64,000 nucleotides of DNA from Pseudogymnoascus verrucosus (GCA_001662655.1 KV460231.1), one strand, 5' to 3'; shown: positions 33,922 through 53,985, counted from the stretch's first letter. Numbers and translations are program-made. The notes: generated by a model not told the origin, from the sequence alone.

Positions 33922-36900
33922 ATGTCTTGGGATTTGCTGAAGCGGTTCATCGAGAGCGATGTCTTTAACCAAAACCCCTTCCTCTCCGTAGCATATCTTT
34001 CGTAAGTGCCCCCGCAATTGGCTTTTCAGTGATAGCAGCTCTGACTGATTTTCCCCAACCAGACGATACGCGGATCATGTCGGAATTACCTACGTCCTGT
34101 GCTCGAAGTTGCGCCAGTTCAGTTATGAGGAGATTGAGTTCTTCTTACCACAACTATGCCACCTAATAATAAGTCTGGACAATGAGTCGATGGCATTGGA
34201 AGAGTTTATTTTGGATTTATGCGAAGAATCTGTGAATGGCGCGTTGCTTGCAAGTCAACCCCCCGATCTTTACCCCTCAATACGCGCGACTGACTGGAAG
34301 TAGACTTTCTGGCTCTTCCAAACGTACCTTCACGATTTATCGAGCAACCCTCAATCGACGGCTTTCAAGACATGCAGGAGGATATACAACAAAGTCCAGC
34401 GGATCGTCTTCGGCGTGACGGACACGGCGCGGGTGGAGAAAATTAAGGAGAACACGTTGCCCGTCACGGTTCTGGCAAGTTTTGTACTGGCCAGCATCGG
34501 CATGCCTGGGCTTCCCAGATGGGCTGGACCACTGGCGATATCACAGGCGCGAAAACCGCAAGAAAGTGAAGCAACTGTATCGGATTCAAGCCAGACGCAA
34601 AAATTAGCAAGGAGCCATACGGTAGCAGGGAGTGGAAGCCGGCAAAGGAGGCCGAGGGATTCCCTAAGAGCAGCGAGCGCCACTGACACGAGGGTGGGAG
34701 GAGAATCGGACACAAAAGCCCCTCGAGGAGCATCATTGGAGGCTAGGCCGCCATCGTCACAGTCAACCCGCAAATCCGCCCTAGATCGAAGCACGAAACG
34801 GCCATCACAATTTACATTACAACCTCCAGATGCGCAATCGAGCACGATATCTTTGCCATTACCAGAGCCAAGCTCACCGAAATCTGTGGCCCGCCCTCTC
34901 ACGCCGCTCTCTGCCCGATTTGGCCCACGGCCAGATATACCACATAGGCGGCATACCCACCAGGTCAGGCCGTTATCCCCTTCGGTCCTCAATACCCGTC
35001 AGAAAGGAAAGCTTCTTCGGCAAAATTACTTTAGGAGTGAGATCCAATTTTTGACTGCCTTGGAAAACATCTCCACTCGGCTTATAATGGTACCGAAGGC
35101 GGCCCGGCTAAGCGCTTTACGCGCCGAGCTCGTTATGATCGCTCAAGATCTGCCAGCAGAGGTTGATATCCCGGTCATATGCCCGGCGACTCTCGTTGAT
35201 GGGGTTCCAAGCAAAAGCAAGCATCACAGAATTGTTCGGCTGAACCCTACTGAATGCACTGTTCTGAACAGTGCCGAAAAAGTTCCGTATCTCCTAATGG
35301 TGGAGGTCCTACGGGATGATTTCACGTTCGACCCTGAAGCGTCAGAAAACGATGCATTATTGAAGAAGCTCCTTGCAGAGCAGGGCACAAGTAGAAGGCG
35401 GATATTTGACCTTCAAGATGCACCACGACTACCCACTGTTGAGGCCCAGCAACCTAAGTCAGTACCTGACAGTGTTTTTGAACCAGTTCAGGGTGACCTT
35501 GGAACATCTCCTGCGATACAAGGGGAAGATGAAGGGCACATTCCGGCGGTGCCAGACCTCATTAGAAGCACCTCAACAGTATCCAGTCCCTCGACAGCCA
35601 CACAATCCACTGTCCAATCAATAACCTCTTCGCATCCAACACCACGGACGTCTGGAACCTCCAACTCTGGATCAAACAGCCCGGGCCAACCCCGAAAGTC
35701 GACCCTACCTCTCCACAGCCGACCAAGCGGTTCGGACCAACCCAACTACCCAGCATTGGCGACTCACATCCGAACAGCGGCCCAAATGCTGACACAACTG
35801 GAATCCACGAGTGGCAAGCGGCCGCGGAGCGAAGTCGATGCCATCCGAGCAAAAATTATCGCAAGTATGCAAAGCTTGGAGGAGCAAAGTTTTGGCAACC
35901 ACGATACACCCACTTTCGATACGATAATGGCCAACGCAAATGCAGCGCCGGTTAACAACGATGATGAAGATGTTGAAGGTCTAGCGCTGGAACTGGTCAC
36001 CACTGGAGCTGGCGCTGCCCGAATGGAGAACGATGAGAAAACCGGTGGTGTGCAAAGAAAGGGAGACCGGGACGATCCAAGTGCAGCCATGTTCGGTGAG
36101 GCTTGGTCGGAGAAAAAGGAACGCATCAGAAAGTCTTCACCATATGGTTGGATGTCGAATTGGGATCTCATCAGTGTCATCGTGAAGACTGGAGATGATC
36201 TGAGGCAAGAAGCGTTTGCTTGCCAGCTGATTCAAGTTTGTGATAAAATATGGCAGGATGCTGGCACTCCTGTGTGGGTCAAGCGGATGCGTATTTTGGT
36301 GACGGGTGAATCTTCTGGCCTTATCGAAACGATTACCAATGGTGTCTCTTTGCATTCAATCAAGCGCAGTTTGACACTGGCGACTATTGAAGCCGGAAAC
36401 AACCCACGAGGCAGGATAGCCACACTACGTGACCATTTTATAAAGGCATTTGGCGACCCAGAGGGGGAGCAGTACAAGGCAGCCGCCACGGAATTCAAGC
36501 GGTCACTTGCGGCATACAGTATCATCTCGTATGTCCTGCAACTCAAGGATCGACATAACGGCAATGTCCTCATCGATAACGAGGGGCATATTGTTCACAT
36601 TGACTTCGGATTTATGTTGTCTAATTCTCCTGGATCGGTCGGCTTCGAGGCGGCTCCATTTAAGCTCACACAAGATTATGTGGATGTCTTGGGGGGAGTA
36701 AACTCTGCAGAGTTCCAGGATTATAAGGTGTTATGCAAGCAAGCTTTCCAAGGTATGATTACTCCAGTGATTTGAAGGTCCAGTACTGATCATAGGCAGC
36801 TCTACGACGCTCTGCAGATAACATCATTGACCTCGTCAGCCTAATGGGCCACGGCTCCAAAATGCCATGTTTCCAATATGGTGTTCTCCAGGCCACAAAT

Positions 36901-38807: not shown

Positions 38808-41800
38808 ATGTCTTCGAAGGACAACACCACCTCGACCCTCCCCAGCCATCGTCGCGCCAAGTCGCACGATGTGCGCTCCACCACGGCCGTCGAAGGCCCT
38901 CGTCCAAGCCTCCCGGGATCCATCCCCTTCTACCCTCGCGTGTTCGGACTCGGCCTTGGTTTCGAGTCGCCCACTGAGCCCGGCGATCTAGCCGCAGCTC
39001 AAGCCGCACCCGTTTCCTCGGCTGGAGAACAGCCCATCCTGGGCACCGACACCGAGGGTAGCGCTGGTGAGGGCGCTGTATCAGCGTCGCCCGCTGGTTG
39101 GTCGCAGGTGTTAAACCCTCTTCCAACCATGGCGACCGGCGCACCTTTGCCCCCTATTATAAAGGGGGTCACCAGCTCGGATCCCGCGGACTTGGAAGCC
39201 GCCGCCGCCGCCGCCCCGCCCCAGCCACCACTTTCCAAGGTGGCTACTCAGGGCCCAGGAGGCAGCAGCAGCGCGGCTGTCCGCTCTCACGAAGCGGTTG
39301 CGTCCTCGTCGTCCGCCTTCTCCAGAGGCGGCTCGACCCGCACCGCCGTCCGCGAAGACCAGGACCGAGTGCGCCCCCCGACGCGCCCCCATCCACCACA
39401 ACTGCTCCCCGGCTTCGTGAGCCCTCGCAGCCGTCGCGACGCCCGCATCCAGACTGGCGCCCAAGCCGGCCCCAGCAGCAATGCTGGACGCCGCCCAGTC
39501 ACACCTGTGCACCAGGTGATCCCCACCTACGATCAGCGTAGGGAGGCGGAGGATGCGTGGCTCCGGCGCGAGGAGCTTCACCGCCGCGAGTGGGAGAGGC
39601 AGCAGGAAAGACAGCTGTCGGAGTTCAACGGCAGCGCCTGGCACTACCCCGTCGGTGCTGTCGTCCGTCGGCAGCCATTCGTGGTTGCCGGACCCCGAGC
39701 TCCGATAGCCCCTGCCGCCGCCGCTGCCGCCGGTCCAGCTTTCCTTGGCCGACCGCGCGGCAACTCCCAGGCTTCGGCCATTGAGCAGGCCTCTGCTTTT
39801 GGGAATGTCGTGCCTGGCCCCTCGCACCGCGCCCGATTCGTCAGCGTCCCAGCTGGCGGGTACGGCGCCGTTGACGATCGCCAGACACGCATTCGCAGTC
39901 CGAGAACCGCCGCCGTTGCCTCGTACGCCGATTCTCCCGGTCATGGACCGTACCTTGGGGGTTCCCGCTTGGAAGGCCAGGGTGCTTATACGGAGCACCC
40001 GAGCCCCAGCACCCCTGAGGGCATGACGCGGGAGATGTACGAGATGATGTGTGCGTTCAGTGAGGACGTGCGCCAAGAGCAAGAGGACGTGGATGAGGAG
40101 GTGGAGGATGAGGGAGAGGCTGCCGCCGCCGCCGCTGCCGCCGAAGCCGCGAGCTTCAGAATGCCAATGCCGGGCATCAACCAGCACGGCCATCTCGAGC
40201 TGCTCCGCGGTCTAACCCGGGCAGAGTTCGAGGCCGAGCAAAGCCAACTCATGGCTGATGCCCTGGCGTTTTCTGAGCTCGTCGGCGCGGAAGAGGAGGA
40301 GGAGAAGGAGGTCGCTGCCGCCGCCGCGCAAGAGGCCGAGGATCGTCGTCGTGATGCCAACAGGCACCGACACCCTCGTGTCTCGTCGCCGGGCGCCGCC
40401 TCCGCGTCCTCGTACTACGGTACTGGGACCCTCGATGCCGAGACGTGGCAGGCAGCCGAGGATGAACTGTGGGACGTGCTGAATCGGCGCAGAGTCCCTA
40501 GCTACGACGAGAAGGGCGCGCTTGTGTTCCCGACTAGCCCGTCAGCGGCTGAGATCGCACGGGAGCGCGCCGCTATCTTCAAGCGTGCTAGGAGACGCGC
40601 CGAGGAGGCGGTAGGAGGAGCGTCGCAGGGTGCTGGATGGGGCGGTGAGGGTCCACTTGACAGGAACCCCCCGCAGATCCCGTTCGGTATCCCTGAGGAT
40701 ATATATGATCAGGCCTGCGCCTTCAACGAGCAGGTGCGTCAGGAGGAGGCGGATCGCGAGCGTGCGGAGGGCCAGGCTGGTCCTTCGCACACAAGCCCGC
40801 TGCCCGCCCCTCTCGCCTGCCCACCAGGCCTGATCGAGTGGGGTGTGACGGAGGAGGGCCTGATTTCGGCGTGGAGGAACCACGTGGCTCAGCAGCCAGC
40901 TGGGCCACACGGTCCCCCAGCAGCTGGATCAGGTGTTGAGCAGCACGGTGCTCAACCCCCTCCCGTCCACCACCACGATCCGTTCGACGAGCGCGATGTG
41001 GCGGCGATTTCTCGGAGCACAGCAGCAGCAGCGCGATCCGGGATTCTTCTGGGTCGCAGCAGCGCGCGGCGCAGCTCGGCGAGGAACGCCACGCGCGGCT
41101 CCTATTATCCCGCGGAGATCTCGACGGGGAGTCCTCGCCCAAGAGGACGCGGTGTTGTCGTAGGTGAGTACGTTGCTCCTCCCGAGCAGGCAACCCCCCT
41201 TCCGGCCCGTAGGAGGGCCATGCGGACACCGTCGCCGTCGGTGTACAGTAGGACCTCCGGCTTTGGCACTGTCCAGGCCGCGGTCCAGCGACCTGTCATC
41301 AGCGGGGTGTCCAGTCCTGATCGTGGCGATGTCTTCGGGTCGCCTTCCATTGAGTTGGCGCCTGTCTTCGCGGGCATCCAGAGGAGGAACCTAGCTTCGT
41401 TTAACGAGCAGGTGAACTCTGGCTCTGACCCCGTTGACGAAGACACGTCGCGAGAGGGACAGGAGAAGGAGGGGGTTAAGGGTAAAATGGTGATCCGAAA
41501 CGGATCCGCTGCGCGTGCGTCCTCGTCGTCTCTGAGCGATGGGGGGGGCCATGCATCCAGATGGGTGTATGAGAGCCCCTCCATCGGCAAGATGGACTTC
41601 GGTCCCCCCAGAGACAAGGGCAAGCGCGCCGCGACCGCTTCGGAGGTGGCCGCGCAGGTCGTCGAAGAGGAGATGCTGCTTCTTGGCACTTCTGCTTCGC
41701 CTGCTGCAACCGAGATGGAGAGGGATGAGGGAGAGGGTGAGGGTGTTATCAGACCCCCCAGCCCAGCCGTCTCGCAATCAGAGACCCTGCTGGACGATAG

Positions 41801-43394
41801 CGGGTCACGAGACGAGCTCCCCCCTCCTCCCCCCTCTCCAACTCCACCACCACCACCATCCTCAGCCGCAGCGCCGATTTTGGTCCCGCTCCTCGCCGGC
41901 GCACACCGAACCCTCGATCTCGACGAGGACTTCGAGTACGACGCCGGCATCGAGGCAGCGCCCAAGTCGACGCGTAGGGCGAAGGTCACGGGCGGACTGC
42001 GCGGATTCGCCAGGGGCATCAAGGACGCGCTCTCGTCTTCCTCGCGGAAGGCAGCTGCGCGTCCACCCCCCCAGCAAGCCGCCGCAGTCGCGACCCCAAG
42101 GCCGGAGATCGTAGATGGAGAAGCGAACCAAAGCACCGCGACAGGTCTGAGCGTCGGTGGGCGACCGGGAGTGTTCGCGTCCCTCACAGGACGCTTCACT
42201 CCCCGTCCTGGCAGTTCAGCCAGCGCCCACCGAGCGCCTCTCGCAAAAGTCAGCGGAACTGGCTCCCTGGGGTCACGACGCTGGCCGGCGCGCAGATCGT
42301 CGCTGGCGCGCGCATTCTCGATCCCGAATCTTCGGTCACCTTCCCTCACGGCTGGGACCCTTAATAAGCCGCTTCCGCAGACGCCGTTGTTCGTCGTGAG
42401 AGAGACGGCCTCGGGCGATGAGGCGTCGTCTACTCCGGACATCGGGGAGTCTGTGGAGTCCGTTGGGTTTCTTCGTCCTGTCACCGCCGCTGTGGAGGGA
42501 CAGTCTCTAAGACGGGGCCGCTATGTTTCGTTCGCGGATCAGCACCCCAGCACAACCGCCAGATGGCTTCGGTCATCTGGTAGTGCTCACGAGATTGTCC
42601 CCCGCGGCGAGGAGCAAAAAGAGGAGCCCACTCCCGTCCGCGCCCAGCAGCAACAGCGCATCGACGATCTCTCAGCCGCCCTCGAGGATGCCGAGAGTTC
42701 GCGCCTAGCAGCTGAGGCGCGCGCATCAGCCGCAGAAGCGGAGCTCACTCGCGCCCACGCCGAGCTGGACGTCTACGTTGCGGAAGCGACGGTGGCCCAG
42801 CGCGCGCTCACGGCGGCACGAGTCGAGTTCCAGCTGCAGCTCGACCTTGCGAGGCGGGAGACCGAGCGGCACGCTGCGGAGACCGAGCGTCAGCATGAAC
42901 GCCACTTGGACTACCTTCGCGTTCTGGCGGAGGCCCATGGGGCGGAGCGACAGGGTCTGGAAGCTCAAATCGCCATGCTGTATTCTGCAGTTGGCGGTCT
43001 CCAGACTCAGTTGCTGTATGCTGGCGTCGGCGTCCCGCAGCAGCAACAGGGAGGAGCGCGAGGTGCTCGCCAGTCGTTGCAATTCCCGGCTGCCCCAGCG
43101 GCGGCCCAGCAGGAGGAGGGGACTGCTGCAAATGAACCCCTCCCACCACCACAACAACCACCCAGCCCCGAGTTCGTATACCTCGGACCCCGTCACCGCT
43201 TCGGCAGCCGCCTGCCCGAACCGGGACTCTTCCAGATCCTCTCCCACCCCATCCCGCTCCCGCCCCAACAACCCCCCTTCGCGCCCTCGGAGTCGGTGCG
43301 TCTCGCGAATCGTGCGGGGCGCCTGGCTGCTGAGGCGGGGGGGGCCGAGTATAGACAGCGCATGAGGCGGAGACAGGTGCCTGACTCGGATTGA
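38808..43394 (+). CDS. Large low-complexity orphan protein (1528 aa) with short internal repeats and a C-terminal coiled coil
   Basis: Single 4.6-kb open frame, ACA ATG context, preceded by three apparent introns; helical segment RIDDLSAALEDAE...LEAQIAML. Confidence 0.8.
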   Translation: MSSKDNTTSTLPSHRRAKSHDVRSTTAVEGPRPSLPGSIPFYPRVFGLGLGFESPTEPGDLAAAQAAPVSSAGEQPILGTDTEGSAGEGAVSASPAGWSQVLNPLPTMATGAPLPPIIKGVTSSDPADLEAAAAAAPPQPPLSKVATQGPGGSSSAAVRSHEAVASSSSAFSRGGSTRTAVREDQDRVRPPTRPHPPQLLPGFVSPRSRRDARIQTGAQAGPSSNAGRRPVTPVHQVIPTYDQRREAEDAWLRREELHRREWERQQERQLSEFNGSAWHYPVGAVVRRQPFVVAGPRAPIAPAAAAAAGPAFLGRPRGNSQASAIEQASAFGNVVPGPSHRARFVSVPAGGYGAVDDRQTRIRSPRTAAVASYADSPGHGPYLGGSRLEGQGAYTEHPSPSTPEGMTREMYEMMCAFSEDVRQEQEDVDEEVEDEGEAAAAAAAAEAASFRMPMPGINQHGHLELLRGLTRAEFEAEQSQLMADALAFSELVGAEEEEEKEVAAAAAQEAEDRRRDANRHRHPRVSSPGAASASSYYGTGTLDAETWQAAEDELWDVLNRRRVPSYDEKGALVFPTSPSAAEIARERAAIFKRARRRAEEAVGGASQGAGWGGEGPLDRNPPQIPFGIPEDIYDQACAFNEQVRQEEADRERAEGQAGPSHTSPLPAPLACPPGLIEWGVTEEGLISAWRNHVAQQPAGPHGPPAAGSGVEQHGAQPPPVHHHDPFDERDVAAISRSTAAAARSGILLGRSSARRSSARNATRGSYYPAEISTGSPRPRGRGVVVGEYVAPPEQATPLPARRRAMRTPSPSVYSRTSGFGTVQAAVQRPVISGVSSPDRGDVFGSPSIELAPVFAGIQRRNLASFNEQVNSGSDPVDEDTSREGQEKEGVKGKMVIRNGSAARASSSSLSDGGGHASRWVYESPSIGKMDFGPPRDKGKRAATASEVAAQVVEEEMLLLGTSASPAATEMERDEGEGEGVIRPPSPAVSQSETLLDDSGSRDELPPPPPSPTPPPPPSSAAAPILVPLLAGAHRTLDLDEDFEYDAGIEAAPKSTRRAKVTGGLRGFARGIKDALSSSSRKAAARPPPQQAAAVATPRPEIVDGEANQSTATGLSVGGRPGVFASLTGRFTPRPGSSASAHRAPLAKVSGTGSLGSRRWPARRSSLARAFSIPNLRSPSLTAGTLNKPLPQTPLFVVRETASGDEASSTPDIGESVESVGFLRPVTAAVEGQSLRRGRYVSFADQHPSTTARWLRSSGSAHEIVPRGEEQKEEPTPVRAQQQQRIDDLSAALEDAESSRLAAEARASAAEAELTRAHAELDVYVAEATVAQRALTAARVEFQLQLDLARRETERHAAETERQHERHLDYLRVLAEAHGAERQGLEAQIAMLYSAVGGLQTQLLYAGVGVPQQQQGGARGARQSLQFPAAPAAAQQEEGTAANEPLPPPQQPPSPEFVYLGPRHRFGSRLPEPGLFQILSHPIPLPPQQPPFAPSESVRLANRAGRLAAEAGGAEYRQRMRRRQVPDSD

Positions 43395-43450
43395 GATCCA
43401 GTTGGGTGGCCTTGTCTTCGTTCCCTTTTCCAGAAAGGATGCGGCTCGGG

Positions 43451-43918
43451 ACAGCCAACGTGGCTTCGGACTTGTTGTTCGGGGCTTTGTTTCACATGGC
43501 TGTGCGGGGGTGTGGGTGAGCAGCCGACGTGGCTGAGAACGGTTTCGAAGTTCTCGGCTTTGTTTCGCATGGCTGCTCGAGGTGAGAGGAAGTGATTGCA
43601 GCCAACGTGGCGCAGGAGATCGAGCCTTTAGGCAGTCTTCTCGCTTTGTTTCGCATGGCTGCATCTGGAATCCCGGCGCGACCAACGTGGTCCTGGAGCC
43701 TCTCTTTCCCTTGCTCCTCGACTTTGTTTCGCCTGGTCGCCTTTGACGGGGACAGCCAACGTGGCAGGAGATTCTCGCCATCAGGCACTCTCCTCGCTTT
43801 GTTTCGCCTGGCTGCCTCTGTGCTGGTATCCGACGAAGAAGAAGAGTCGCCAACGTGGTCGGTGACTGACGTTTTGACGTCCCGGCTTTGTTTCGCATGG
43901 CTTCTTCTCTCTTCTTCT
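43451..43918 (+). promoter_or_regulatory. Tandem array of six structured RNA elements in the probable 3' UTR (candidate cis-regulatory motif)
   Basis: Each unit: outer stem, ACGT, inner hairpin, TTGTTTC(G/A)C(A/C), outer stem; compensatory changes in both stems. Confidence 0.8.
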
Positions 43919-45283
43919 GGGTTGTTGTTTTGGTCACTGTTCTCTTCTCCTGTGCTTTTGCGTGTCTGTCTTTTTGTCTTTGTGTTCTCCGGCCCTGTGT
44001 GGTTTTTGCGGCGTGTGCGCGTCTGTGTGCTTCTCTCTGCGTGTGCGTGTCTGGCTTTGTGGCTTTTGTGTTTTGGGCTCTGTTTGCTCCTAATTGTCAG
44101 TTTATATCCTGACGCAGAGTTTGTCAGCCACCGTGCCTGTTCGTCATTTGGCGCCTGGCTTCTGGCTTCTTGTATGTAGAATAAAGAAGCTTTTTACTCA
44201 CTGCTGGTGCATTTGCTAGCTGTGCTTGTGTGTTTGGTGGTGGTGTACTGACAATAGGGGGTCCGATGCTTGGTCGCTCGATGGAGTGGGATGGGTGTTA
44301 GAAACTGGAATAAGGATTTGGGAAGATGGATTCGATGAGACTCACCAGTGATGGGAAGTACCTCACCTCCCCTTCATCTTGATATCTGCTAACTCTCACT
44401 CAAAAGAGCAAAAAGCCGCCTCTCCCATGGAGTTTGTCGTTGTCGACTCCCCTGCCGCCGATGAAGAAGAAAAAGGAGGAAAGGGGCCCCAAAAGCGCAA
44501 GCGTGCGCGGTCAGTTAGGGCGAGGGCACCGCCTCCCCCGCAATTTCCGCTGAGTCGACACCTCTCCTGCGCGACGACGTCGTTACAATGGTCACGCGGT
44601 GGCAAAGAGGTGAGGAGGGACAAAGGAAGGGTTGAGGAGGGAGGAGGAGTGGGGGGGGACACGACATGTTGGTGTGAAGGTTTTCTTGTCACTGTCATGC
44701 TTGAGGAGAAGGGCAACTTATGTTTTATTTTGAATGAAATGTTTTCTGATGAACGCATGAGCACAGTGATATGGGTGTGAGACTACCCACGGAATCAGAT
44801 ACCCAGTGGGACAGAGGGGGACTGTGGACTTCCACGCATCCATCCTCCTGCAGCTTCTTCTTGTGAAGCTGACTCCAGCTTTGGATATACCGATTTCAAC
44901 TTGATGCAGATATCACCAACGACACAGCACAGCTTGGATACGCACAGCATAATCACCAGTCGACCATACACAGCAAGCAAGCACTTGACTCACTTTCATG
45001 CAGTACTGACAAGAAACCTCCCAGGGAGGGTGATGCATATCACCAAGGAATGGGGAAGGGGGATGTGCACTAGGCACATTGGTGTGGACACTATTCACTC
45101 ACACTCACACAAGCATGCCGCCTCACGCAAGCCGTCACACGGCCCCCCCACGCCTCACAACACTCCCTTTCTCACCGACTCACCACCCTACCCACCGACT
45201 CACCTCTCAATACGCACCCTTCACCCGTCACGACAACCCCCTATTCACCAGCCTACGCCGCAATACCCACCAGACAAAGGGGA

Positions 45284-45405
45284 CAATAGCACCACAATAG
45301 CACCACAATAGCACCACAATAGCACCACAATACCCACCACAATACCAACACAATACCAACACAAGACAATGAAAAGAAAAAGACAATGAAAAGAAAAAGA
45401 CAATG
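45284..45405. repeat. Short tandem repeats (CAATAGCACCA)n and (GACAATGAAAAGAAAAA)2
   Basis: Directly visible 11-bp and 17-bp tandem units. Confidence 0.85.
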
Positions 45406-46201
45406 ACAAAGACAAAGCAGAGTGAGCAAAAAGGCGGTATTGTTCAAATAATCTTCCATTCATTCCCCATTCCTCTCCTTACTTCTCCCCCTATCTCTCT
45501 CCATCATACTCTCTCTCCCATACTACCCCCCATACTCTCCATACTCCCCTCATACTGTCACCATACCATCTCTCCATACTCTCCTTCTCTCCCTTTCTCC
45601 CCTTCTCTCCTTCTCTCCCCCCTCTCTCTGTCTGTCTGTCACTGTCTTAATTTCGCTTTCCCATACAAGACAGACAGCAGCCATCACCATACTGCAAGAA
45701 AAACAAATCAATCGGAGTAGTAAGTCCCTAATCGTTACGCCTAGCAAAAAAAAACACTCATCGCGGTATCACACACCACCAGAAAACACACAAGAAAAAA
45801 AGGATGTGGTTGAAGAAGAAGAAGAAGAAAGACAATCCCCTCCTGGTTTGTTCCGATTTGGCCTGTTTTCATCCCAAGAGTTCTCCAGCTTTTGTCGCAT
45901 CGTCGTTGTTCTTTTGTTCCAAAAAATAAAAAGCTTTTTTGTCGATATGCTTTTATGCTAGCTCCAAGAAGAAGAGAGAGGAAGGAAGAAAGGATATTCG
46001 CGCTTTCGCATGGTTGGTGCACAAATATTGGACTGCTGGGCAAAGACTGACTTGCTCTCGGTAGCAATGTCATCGGATGCGAAGGTGAAGGGCGCGCTGA
46101 GGTTCGAAAATGCGGTTCGGAAAGCCTTGAATTTGTCGATCGATCTGAAGATGGGCTGGGTACAATTGCGAAACCAGGTCGGGGATATACAGTCAGGTCA
46201 T

Positions 46202-47180
<979 letters not shown>

Positions 47181-51366: not shown

Positions 51367-53985
51367 CTAAGAAGCCTCCTCAGCCCACCCATTCAACCCC
51401 CCCTCCTGGAGCGCAAGTCCATACCCCCCACCCCCACCCGCACCTCCCCCCACAACACCCATCCCCGCACTCATCCCCCCCGCATTACCAAACCCCAATC
51501 CCCCCATCCCGCTCACAAGTCCCGAGAAGGAAGATTGATACGCGTGGCCCCTGCCTGCGAAACCCTGCCCACCACCGCCGCCGTTGACGCCAAGGCCGTT
51601 AGAGGAGGTGGTTGACTGGTTCGAGGAGTCCTGCGCGAAGAATGGGAGAGATGCCGCTCTCGCGTGTTGGCTCCGCGCGTTGGAAGGGGCGAGGAGACCG
51701 CCTACAGTCGTTGAGCTTGAGGTAGGGGCTGCGTAGCCGTTGGAGATAGACGCAGAATGCTGATGTCCGCCATGCGAGTGTGTTTGGATTCCTAGTCCGT
51801 CTGCTTGCCCATTCTGGTTGTTGTTGTTCTCGCCACCATTATCCCCCCCTGCACCATTCCCATAAATCTGCTGCACAAGCGCCTGCTGTCTCTGCTGCTG
51901 ATACGTCGCCTGCGCGCCCTCGAGGGACTGCTGATGCTGATGCTGCGCGTGCTGCGCCGCCTGCTGCTGGCTCATCTGATTGAGGTACATAGTCAACGGG
52001 TTATTGCTCCCCGCGTTCAGGACAGCGCTAGCGGTGTTGGCTTGGGCGGGCTGGAAGGAGGTAGTTGGGGCTTGGGAGTTTGTCGGGCTGGAGCCGTTTT
52101 GGGAGTTACTCTGGTGCCCTGCTGAGGCGGGGGAGTTGACGCCGTCTGCGCGGTTGGGCTGGGCCTGCTGCTGGGATTGCTGTTGGAGCTGGCGTGGTGG
52201 GTTTCCGCAGCGGTCTTTGCCGAAGTTGACTTTGAAGCGACGGTAATCCTCCTTTCCGCGGATGGCCTCGATGGCTTTGATAGCATTAGCGATATTGGTG
52301 AAGTTGACGAACGCGCACGATTTCTCGCGCAGCGTGTTGACGAGCTCAATCTCGCCGTACTCGGTGAAGTCCTGACGCAGACGGTCCTCGGTGAAGGACT
52401 CGTCGAGGTTGCCAACGTAGACGTTGCGCGAGGCGCCGCCGCTGACGGCGAGGGCGATGGCGGGGGGGAGGGCGCCGGAGTGCTTGCCCCACCCGATCTT
52501 GAGGCGGCGGTTGTGGATCATCAGGCCTTGGAGGTTGCTGAGGGCGTAGAAGGAGGCCGCAGAGGTGGGGTCGATGAAGGTCACGAAGCAGATGTGCTTG
52601 TCGGGGATGTAGCGGATGTGGTGTAGGAGGCCGCCACGGACGACATTGCAGATCTCTTCGATGGTGGTCTCAGGGTGGATGTTGCCGAGGTAGACGGTGC
52701 GGTTTCCGAGGTTGTTGATGCCGCCGGCGGTGGTGGCAACGGCGGCTGCTGCGACGGACTGCTGGGCTAGAGCGTTGGAGATCAGATCACGGTCCGCGCC
52801 GTTCAGGACATGGGCGTAACCAGGAGCAATACCAAGGTACTGCGCCGCGTTCTGCTGCTGGGTCTTGGACACATACGCGCAGCGGTCCTTACCGTAGTAG
52901 ACCTTGCGAGGAGCCTGCCACTTCGGCTCCTGTGGGAGCTGAGAGACCGCCTTGATTGCATTTCCAATAGACAGGAAGTGAACGAATCCGATTGCCTTTT
53001 CACGGACAATCTTGACTGTATCGATGGGGCCGAACTTGCCCAGGTCCTCGCGCAGCTCATCCTCGGTAATGTCTTCCGACAGATTACCAAGGTAAACGTT
53101 TCGCGAGGCGCCGGACTGCTGCACGGCGAGTGCAACAGACGTCGGGACCTGGGACGGCTTGCCCCAGCCGATCTTGATGTCCTGTCCGCGGATAGCCAGT
53201 TTCTTCAAGATGGCATCCGAGTGGAAGTGAGTGGCAGAGGCACCATCCAAGAAGGAGATGAACGCGCAGTTCTTGTCTGGGAGGAGTCTGACGGACTCAA
53301 TCTGTCCACTACGGACATGACCCAAAATCTCCTCAGCGGACGTCTCAGGGGGGATGTTGCCAAGATAGACAGTCCTGCTCGTTCCGGCCGCGATGCCCTG
53401 GGCCTGCTGCGGCGAAGTCGGCATCTGCATCTGCATTTGCATCTGTAGCTGCATCTGGTTCCCCAGAGCAGCGTATCCCTGAGTCGGAGACTGCGGGGCG
53501 TAGAACTGCGGAGCACCATAAGTCGACGGGGAAACTATGGCCTGGTAAAGTTGTGGTGACATCTGGCCCTGGATGGGGCTGGCCATGCCGTTTTGCTGCT
53601 GCTGCTGTCCATTATGCTGCTGGCTGAAGTTGGCAAAATTCTGGAACTGCGGGTTGGCAAATGCGGCCGGGGAGCCCGGTTGAAAGGGGCTTCCGAGGAG
53701 GAGCTGGGACGGCAGTAATGGGGTGAACTGCATGTCGAAGGCGGTCCCTGGTGTGGAGGCATCAGCCCCGTTCTGCCCTAGCGGTTGCGTGTTGATCGAA
53801 GGGATGTTCGCTGCACGGTTTGGATGCCTGTCGCCGTATCCGCCCATGGAGAACTGGTTCGAGCTGTAGGCGCCGTGGGAGAAGCCCGTCTCGGAGAGGG
53901 ATGGTTTGGAGGCATGGCCGGGGAAGCGGGAGGCAGTCCTGGCGTTTGGGCCGTTCATGGCGCTGGTTGATGCTGTTTCCTGCAT
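51367..53985 (-). CDS. MRN1: Four-RRM RNA-binding protein (S. cerevisiae Mrn1 / S. pombe Nrd1 family)
   Basis: RRMs [48 protein letters not shown] motifs; Gln/Gly-rich flanks. Confidence 0.9.

Follow-up and report, generated by a model that had tools for sequence, protein, structure and literature searches.

The 64,000 nucleotides of Pseudogymnoascus verrucosus DNA analysed here (GCA_001662655.1 KV460231.1; hereafter the window) contain an intron-less open reading frame (ORF) of 1528 amino acids on the + strand (38808..43394), whose putative 3' untranslated region (3' UTR) holds an array of six units (43449-43918, + strand), each predicted to fold into a hairpin. Among the other larger ORFs of the window, Pfam identifies a fungal HAT1 C-terminus, ANAPC3/TPR, PI4-kinase, AsnRS, DNA ligase and an RRM protein. 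The neighbouring gene on the downstream side, a Ras-family fragment on the - strand (45741-46496), is convergent. Microsatellite-like arrays occur downstream of the six units as well (45283-45417), comprising (ACAATAGCACC) in 7.4 copies and a 17-nt unit in 3.2 copies. An 872-aa protein with several RRMs (RRM_1, occluded RRM, PF10378) is encoded on the - strand at 51367-53985, 7.5 kb off the array, to which it is linked by proximity alone.

The 1528-aa protein is rich in alanine, proline and arginine, mainly of low complexity, and has a coiled-coil-like stretch towards its C-terminus. No Pfam family was found on this ORF, and the best scores for its C-terminal 300 residues in the ESM Atlas (0.85-0.88) lie below a meaningful level. 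Eleven relatives with 66-89% identity were found, seven of which are 'hypothetical protein' entries of Pseudogymnoascus species; every named relative belongs to this genus, so that the term orphan gene, as used in the original prediction, is correct if taken to mean genus-restricted. The gene is also young and evolves fast. Literature searches found no mention of GMDG_00603 and nothing relevant on UTR structure in Pseudogymnoascus. Within the protein, an internal motif is present in three copies (P0001; CAFSEDVRQEQE, CAFNEQVRQEEA, ASFNEQVNSGSD). The RG stretch STGSPRPRGRGVV is invariant in 11 of 11 aligned relatives, the protein carries an invariant SPRPRGRGVV stretch, and the RG motif could bind RNA. 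The NCBI model of one relative (P0002, 2541 aa) joins a PI3/PI4-kinase domain to a protein of the 1528-aa type; since the kinase ORF of the window is separate and lies just upstream (34502-36775), this fusion is probably an annotation artefact.

The same C-terminus, ...PDSD or PNSD, is found in nine of ten relatives compared, and the tenth, an ENA prediction, differs just at the extreme end, which implies that the stop codon is conserved. The stop ends at 43394, in agreement with the 57-nt gap to the array given by the original prediction. The spacer up to unit 1 (43395..43448, + strand) forms a small CCUUUU...AAAGG hairpin in the global fold. Behind the array, the rest of the putative 3' UTR (43919..44179, + strand) is G/U-rich, strongly so at 43919-44100; it contains a 28-nt tandem repeat (43995-44053, 2.1 copies) and GGCUUUGU-like words, and GGCUUUGUGGCUUUUGUG-like words echo the 3' core of the units. 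Likely polyadenylation signals follow at 44171..44185 (+ strand), where UGUAUGUAG precedes AAUAAA, judging from the sequence alone. The array therefore lies, as had been proposed, 3' of a conserved stop codon and 5' of the AATAAA at 44180, and together with the convergent neighbour this position would fit a 3' UTR of about 800 nt. A single 174-nt contig of run X1, perhaps an RNA run, matches 43867-44040 with two differences, and is not taken as expression.

All six units share the elements CCA-ACGU-GG and CU-UUGUUUC(G/A)C(A/C)-UGG. The pattern ACGTGG-N15-45-TTTGTTTCRC has six matches in the 64-kb window, all on the + strand between 43458 and 43896, where 100 dinucleotide-preserving shuffles give an expectation of 0.00; TTTGTTTCGC with up to one mismatch matches ten times in the window, six of these inside the array. 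After alignment of the units with MAFFT, the invariant columns read CC-ACGTGG and CTTTGTTTC-C-TGG, and both CCAACGUGG and CUUUGUUU are identical in six of six units. The six units score 62.8-72.8 bits with a covariance model derived from them, while the next best hit in the window reaches 12.9 bits; on their reverse strands, the units score at most 12 bits. Neither this model nor the pattern search found an array-like element elsewhere in the 64-kb window. The originally predicted unit boundaries, the variant TTGTTTCACA in unit 1 and the quoted P1 arms all agree with the sequence.

Outside these two cores the units have little in common. They are spaced at 69, 78, 80, 74 and 94 nt, and the pairwise identity of the variable parts between the cores is 0.38-0.67, against 0.49 +/- 0.07 for shuffled sequence. 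The sole pair above this random-level range is formed by units 3 and 5, whose variable parts are 76% identical, which marks them as a younger duplicate pair; the claim that the apices are unrelated therefore stands for the other pairs (38-67%) and fails for this one. Units 3 (43596-43664) and 5 (43750-43817) also have an AGGAGA/UCUCCU stem in common. Tandem Repeats Finder (TRF) at a minimum score of 30 reported no array at 43451-43918 (0 of 16 rows), because the units are unalike outside two short cores. A minisatellite or other tandem DNA repeat with head-to-tail units alike along their entire length was rejected on these grounds, with no TRF array and random-level identity of the variable parts in all but one pair. 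A protein-coding repeat was rejected too: the cores occur in all three frames, the spacings are not multiples of three, and no Pfam family was found on the open frames across the array, which together argue that the array is not a protein repeat.

When each unit was folded alone as RNA with ViennaRNA, a common architecture emerged that supports the hairpin model of the original prediction. It comprises an outer helix (P1), a 6-nt bulge on the 3' strand, the short helix ACG:UGU, a U.U mismatch, an inner helix (P2) and a variable apex. P1 comprises at least 7 bp and closes with CCA/UGG, a rule from which unit 6 deviates; the bulge reads UUC(G/A)C(A/C); ACG:UGU consists of the three pairs A-U, C-G and G.U; and P2 begins with G.U followed by G-C, its apex being free. 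Folding energies of the single units range from -24.8 to -33.8 kcal/mol (z -2.7 to -5.3), and 0-2 of 200 shuffles fold equally well. An open 4x10 loop had been considered first, with pairing of ACG to UGU beside a UUCGC[A/C] bulge as the alternative; it is this alternative that ViennaRNA predicts in five of six units. The relatives described below agree better with it as well, since they retain ACG and UGU whereas their bulge drifts in sequence. In the global + strand fold of 43395-43960, the hairpins of units 1-4 and 6 are retained and unit 5 is rearranged. By eye, the 5' arms of P1 and P2 may also pair with each other across ACG (AGCCA-ACG-UGGCU; 43455-43470 and equivalents, with GACCA/UGGUC as the unit 4 equivalent); such an alternative local hairpin would have 4-6 bp and be far weaker than the minimum free energy (MFE) fold.

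Within this architecture the helices, all on the + strand, are specific to the unit. Unit 1 (43449..43505) has the P1 ACAGCCA/UGGCUGU and a 10-bp P2 with four G.U pairs, its 3' strand being UUGUUUCACA (-26.6 kcal/mol, z -4.73; 67.6 bits). In unit 2 (43518..43579), P1 is GAGCAGCCG/UGGCUGCUC and P2 is GGCUGAGAAC/GUUCUCGGCU (-33.8 kcal/mol, z -5.31; 72.8 bits). Unit 3 (43596..43664), the paralogue of unit 5, combines the P1 UGCAGCCA/UGGCUGCA with a P2 that contains a bulged C and an inner apical hairpin (-31.6 kcal/mol, z -3.59; 66.3 bits). Two pairs of P1 are swapped in unit 4 (43676..43742; GCGACCA/UGGUCGC) with respect to the other units; its P2 is GGUC..GGAGC/GCUCC..GACU and its 3' strand has a terminal C (-24.8 kcal/mol, z -4.47; 69.6 bits). 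Such a terminal C is also present in unit 5 (43750..43817), with P1 ACAGCCA/UGGCUG and P2 GGCAGGAGA/UCUCCU(C)GCU (-27.8 kcal/mol, z -2.89; 67.3 bits). Unit 6 (43832..43918, core 43844-43906) has the P1 GCCA/UGGC and the P2 GGUCGG/CCGGCU with an inner GACGU/ACGUC hairpin (-31.8 kcal/mol, z -2.73; 62.8 bits); its MFE fold deviates in that the regular P1 is just 4 bp long and is extended by a long imperfect purine/pyrimidine outer stem, GAAGAAGAAGAG/CUUCUUCUCUCUUCUUC.

Compensatory change between unit-specific stems, a central claim of the original prediction, is borne out by several measures. Standard pairs fill 86.4% of 132 pair cells; shifting the 3' partner by 1-3 columns lowers this share to 37.7-48.4%. 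Both sides have changed in 9 of 22 pairs. The covariation score of 0.339 exceeds the 0.207 of shuffled alignments, and is reached by 0 of 500 shuffles. These figures lean towards the model, since the alignment was fitted to the structure and its rows are six paralogous units of one genome. An independent test computed the duplex energy for each combination of a 5' and a 3' arm, excluding the conserved end pairs. Out of 720 ways to assign the 3' arms, only 2 perform as well as the cognate one, in P1 as in P2, and the second of these reflects, in each helix, units that have an arm in common. The clearest P1 swap is that of unit 4, with CGACCA/UGGUCG as opposed to CAGCCA/UGGCUG.

The pairing is also biased towards one strand. 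In the MFE folds, G.U makes up 21 of 143 pairs on the + strand and 7 of 129 on the - strand. The column model contains 27 G.U/U.G cells versus 6 A.C cells; leaving out the two invariant G.U pairs, the counts are 15 and 6. Some of the A.C cells stem from register shifts at bulges. The region 43395-43960 folds at -232.3 kcal/mol on the + strand (z -3.13; 0 of 100 shuffles as good) and at -177.1 kcal/mol on the - strand (z -1.48; 10 of 100 shuffles as good). Taken singly, units 1, 2, 3 and 6 fold clearly better on the + strand, whereas units 4 and 5 fold about equally well on both (- versus +: -24.4 versus -24.8 and -27.9 versus -27.8 kcal/mol). The predicted + strand preference thus holds, both in the number of G.U pairs and in the folding of the whole region. 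Taken together, the array probably is a selected + strand RNA structure.

Could the hairpins instead be neutral DNA? An old palindromic minisatellite, the arms of which are refreshed by template switching or slippage, would produce paired arms with no RNA function. Template switching has indeed been proposed as a process by which complementary hairpin arms arise and are preserved (bioRxiv 10.1101/2021.04.15.439925 / PMC8794818). The youth and fast evolution of the gene would suit such an origin, as would the gain and loss of units, visible in the duplicate pair 3/5, in the absence of unit 3 from one relative and in the different order of units in another. However, template switching gives Watson-Crick pairs on both strands, while here G.U cells exceed A.C cells and the + strand folds far better. 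Moreover, a neutral repeat of such an age should not hold two cores identical in six copies, and neither the silence of TRF nor the random-level identity outside the cores is expected of it. We consider this origin unlikely. An even smaller chance is left for a regulatory cluster at the DNA level, in which six sites for a DNA-binding protein, composed of the half G-box-like ACGTGG and TTTGTTTCGC, would act on a neighbouring gene. Two fixed words do recur every 69-94 bp, and words with an ACGT core are typical targets of bZIP and bHLH proteins; yet DNA binding leaves the unit-specific complementary arms and the strand asymmetry unexplained, and a site between convergent genes (the + strand gene ending at 43394, the Ras fragment on the - strand) is not a promoter position. 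Such a cluster is highly improbable.

Three relatives carry the array, with five to at least seven units. In run X2, which contains a 249-kb record and therefore looks like a genome assembly, an 8306-nt contig with at least 80% likeness follows the ORF, enters the array at 43452 and continues to 44175, beyond which it goes on unlike the window (80% identity cut-off). Inside the array it has two joints, one from 43572 to 43849 with 20 other letters between, and one from 43700 back to 43553 with 15 letters between, which implies a different arrangement of units in the related genome. The translated + frame across the array, used as a query against Logan proteins, gave four matches, two of which are arrays of relatives (P0016 and P0013); the other two (P0014, P0015) were rejected as unrelated bacterial repeat proteins. 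In P0016 and P0013 the cores appear as peptide signatures in changing frames (5' core QPTW/SQRG/ANV, 3' core ALFRMA/LCFAW/FVSHG). P0016 has at least five units and lacks a counterpart of unit 3; of its five 3' cores, four can be read as TTTGTTTCGC(A/C)TGG and the fifth contains an additional nucleotide. P0013, from the most distant relative, has at least seven units in another order, with a unit-3-like copy behind a unit-5-like one. The missing unit 3 and the reordered copies indicate that the array gains and loses units.

CCAACGUGG and CUUUGUUU are compatible with the peptides in seven of seven and five of five complete units of the two relatives, and all seven 5' cores of P0013 are compatible with CCAACGTGG. 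Its 3' cores retain UUUGUU in five of six units and exclude CGC in five of six; the changed codons are UUY, UUY, UAY, AY.. and UUY, and the length of the bulge is unchanged. The bulge contains CGC in the source genome and is U-rich in the distant relative, in whose units it has changed together. The loop strands, originally described as almost invariant, are so in the source genome and one close relative and not in the more distant one (CGC excluded in five of six units); they are not invariant across the genus, which weakens the case for a strictly sequence-specific site.

The stems remain pairable in the relatives. Mapping the MFE pairs of the window on degenerate back-translations of nine matched units, 175 of 181 pairs can still form in the relatives, compared to 131-143 of 181 when slid by 1-3 positions; 160 of the 181 are simply unchanged. 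A change is forced in 21 pairs, only 2 of which changed on both sides, 13 on one side while still pairable, and 6 are broken. Both two-sided changes are swaps of A-U to G-C, at 43451/43503 (P1 of unit 1) and 43617/43638 (P2 of unit 3). A cognate-arm test over ten complete units of the two relatives found 77 of 20000 permutations as good for P1 and P2 together and 173 of 20000 for P2; it was not significant for P1 over the ten units (2904 of 20000) or for P0013 alone with P1 and P2 combined (2194 of 20000). Since the amino-acid strings fix about two thirds of the bases, this test is weak in the relatives.

These comparisons also bear on whether the hairpins might be selected for their bulk alone. 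Without a dedicated binding factor, generic structure could make a long 3' UTR more compact or stiffer, stop exonucleases that act 3'-to-5', protect the mRNA from the surveillance of long 3' UTRs, or respond to temperature by melting, and Pseudogymnoascus fungi are cold-adapted. Each unit has stable stems (-24.8 to -33.8 kcal/mol), the bulge of the relative drifts in sequence while its length and the helices stay, and a copy number of five to at least seven in the relatives is what one would expect if only structural bulk matters. What such a role leaves unexplained is the identity of CCAACGUGG and CUUUGUUU in six units and their compatibility in two relatives, amid surroundings that vary freely, and we regard it as no likelier than the neutral origin discussed above.

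Known RNA families offer no match. A search of 42800-44600 on both strands against Rfam 15 at E up to 10 found nothing in the array, as the original prediction of an unfamiliar family had suggested; two matches to miRNA models (17.7 and 16.4 bits, gathering thresholds 58 and 80) fall inside the ORF at 43098-43161. Several specific candidates were rejected. An iron-responsive element (IRE), which has a CAGUGN apical loop with a bulged C five pairs beneath it, is not present, as the six apical loops differ and none is CAGUGN. Kink-turns, the sites of L7Ae, Snu13 and L30, have a 3-nt bulge followed by tandem sheared G.A and A.G pairs; here, ACGU and UUGUUUCGCM are without a GA or AG step and the bulge has 6 nt. 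A Whi3- or Rbfox-type GCAU(G) site is present in just three of six units. Stimulators of stop-codon readthrough usually lie closer to the stop than the 57 nt that separate it from the first hairpin, which is too far.

A cluster of miRNA-like hairpins and a cluster of box C/D snoRNAs were likewise rejected, the former since its pattern of conservation is reversed here, with varying stems (9 of 22 pairs changed on both sides) and a fixed unpaired core, and the latter since such RNAs have a C box (RUGAUGA) and a D box (CUGA) beside a terminal stem, while none of the 23 places in the window that read RTGATGA is within 43400-43960. Both results concern a broader possibility, namely that the array is a separate non-coding RNA or serves as a substrate for processing, such as a small-RNA precursor for Dicer or RNase III or a polycistronic precursor similar to those of snoRNAs. 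In shape, six hairpins of 57-90 nt in tandem do resemble polycistronic hairpin precursors. Against this, conservation is the reverse of that at miRNA-like loci, the array contains no C box and no Rfam snoRNA or miRNA match, and the apical loops have no AGNN-type signal in common; a precursor is thus very unlikely. An array of small-molecule aptamers, similar to a riboswitch, would account for a conserved internal loop between covarying helices, which is the usual look of an aptamer. However, the bulge sequence changes in the relative, there is no match to an Rfam riboswitch, and we know of no precedent for six tandem aptamers in the 3' UTR of a gene without a metabolic link, all of which makes this reading extremely improbable.

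A dispersed mobile element, such as a MITE or a transposon end, would have more copies in other parts of the genome, and the 64-kb window contains none outside the array. The strict two-core pattern found 0 loci in JGI metagenome contigs, and a protein-profile scan of metagenomes based on the 11-sequence alignment matched 158 stretches, none of which was confirmed. Across 596 Gb of prokaryote genomes the strict pattern matched once, in an Acidobacteriaceae MAG (L001, 996-1051, - strand; 15.5 bits), by chance, as the P2 stem is missing there.

The reading we prefer, to which we assign a probability of about one half, is that the array provides docking sites for a trans-acting factor in the putative 3' UTR of a genus-restricted gene. 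The six units would be cis-acting modules of RNA within a 3' UTR of roughly 800 nt that belongs to a gene specific to Pseudogymnoascus. Each is predicted to form a long irregular hairpin in which a fixed helix-bulge-helix core is placed between helices that are free in sequence and constrained in pairing. The 5' strand of the core reads CCA|ACG-U-GG and its 3' strand CU-U-UGU|6-nt bulge|UGG; it is distinguished by two invariant G.U wobbles, a U.U mismatch and the 6-nt 3' bulge. A fixed non-Watson-Crick core between sequence-free helices is the signature of a site that is read by its shape plus a few bases, of which IREs, the U1A element and Roquin sites are examples, and the core may therefore be where the factor, most probably an RNA-binding protein, docks. 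With six such sites in 470 nt, the array could provide high-avidity, cooperative binding, and binding might then set the fate of the mRNA through localisation, translational repression or stability. We infer that the array is transcribed within the mRNA, and likewise that a factor of this nature exists and that its binding has such an outcome.

The concerted change of the bulge in P0013, which keeps the length and alters the sequence in its units together, suggests either a spacer or a site that co-evolves with its binding factor. A spacer would favour generic structure, while co-evolution would favour recognition specific to the lineage. Following the latter, one may speculate about a previously undescribed, lineage-specific RNA-protein recognition module: a multivalent, six-fold scaffold on the mRNA of a young, disordered protein bearing RG motifs, the bulge of which would co-evolve with the factor, possibly the encoded protein itself. 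This extension of the docking-site reading is doubtful, if somewhat less so than structural bulk or neutral repeats. If the encoded protein were the factor, an autoregulatory or condensate-forming loop would result.

Whatever its mode of action, the locus is a good lead: a strand-biased, internally covarying hairpin array of a kind absent from Rfam, restricted to one genus, variable in copy number and located on a young gene. Multi-copy structured elements of 3' UTRs, such as IREs, Roquin sites and zipcodes, are textbook examples of post-transcriptional control. To our knowledge, they come almost all from animals and budding yeast, and for filamentous fungi we are aware of very few mRNA elements whose fold is defined. 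With six internally controlled copies of one small module, the array offers an unusually clean start for a new RNA-binding specificity, and it allows the birth, duplication and retuning of a cis-element to be followed within one genus, on a young gene. The genus includes the bat white-nose fungus; the present findings have no bearing on virulence.

Two fungal surveys describe structured 3' UTR motifs with conserved internal loops, the function of which is mostly unknown, and term searches of both texts found no tandem structured motif, the word 'tandem' occurring 0 times (PMC5640933, PMC8216456). The motifs described there are conserved across fungal classes and single copy per gene ('predominantly single copy per genome', PMC8216456), whereas the array is six-fold and restricted to a genus.

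Bacterial REP/BIME elements resemble the array as imperfect palindromes just 3' of a coding region with variable copy number. They are transcribed into hairpins, while the hairpins of the array are predicted, and they consist of near-identical units spread genome-wide, in contrast to the unit-specific stems found here at one locus so far. Among elements that bind proteins, the polyadenylation-inhibition element of U1A mRNA contains, in its own 3' UTR, two asymmetric internal loops that are bound by the RRMs of U1A. Both systems repeat a helix-asymmetric internal loop-helix arrangement in a 3' UTR near a poly(A) signal; the U1A loop, however, is AUUGCAC/AUUGUAC and occurs in two copies, while the array has another loop in six copies and ends about 260 nt before AAUAAA.

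The 3' UTR of the transferrin-receptor mRNA carries five IREs, which are bound by IRP. Here, too, several small hairpins with fixed unpaired nucleotides and covarying stems lie in one 3' UTR, and multivalent protein binding sets the stability of the mRNA, which for the array is a proposal. IREs, which are metazoan, have a CAGUGN apical loop and a C bulge, in contrast to the free apices and the fixed internal ACGU / UUGUUUCGCM module of the array, and no part of the array was matched by the Rfam IRE models at E up to 10. Roquin recognises apical tri- or hexaloops by their shape. This vertebrate system has no sequence in common with the array. In the Nfkbid 3' UTR, six Roquin-bound stem-loops are reported to cooperate in post-transcriptional control (PMC6145892), and in having six stem-loops in a single, here putative, 3' UTR it resembles the arrangement proposed for Pseudogymnoascus.
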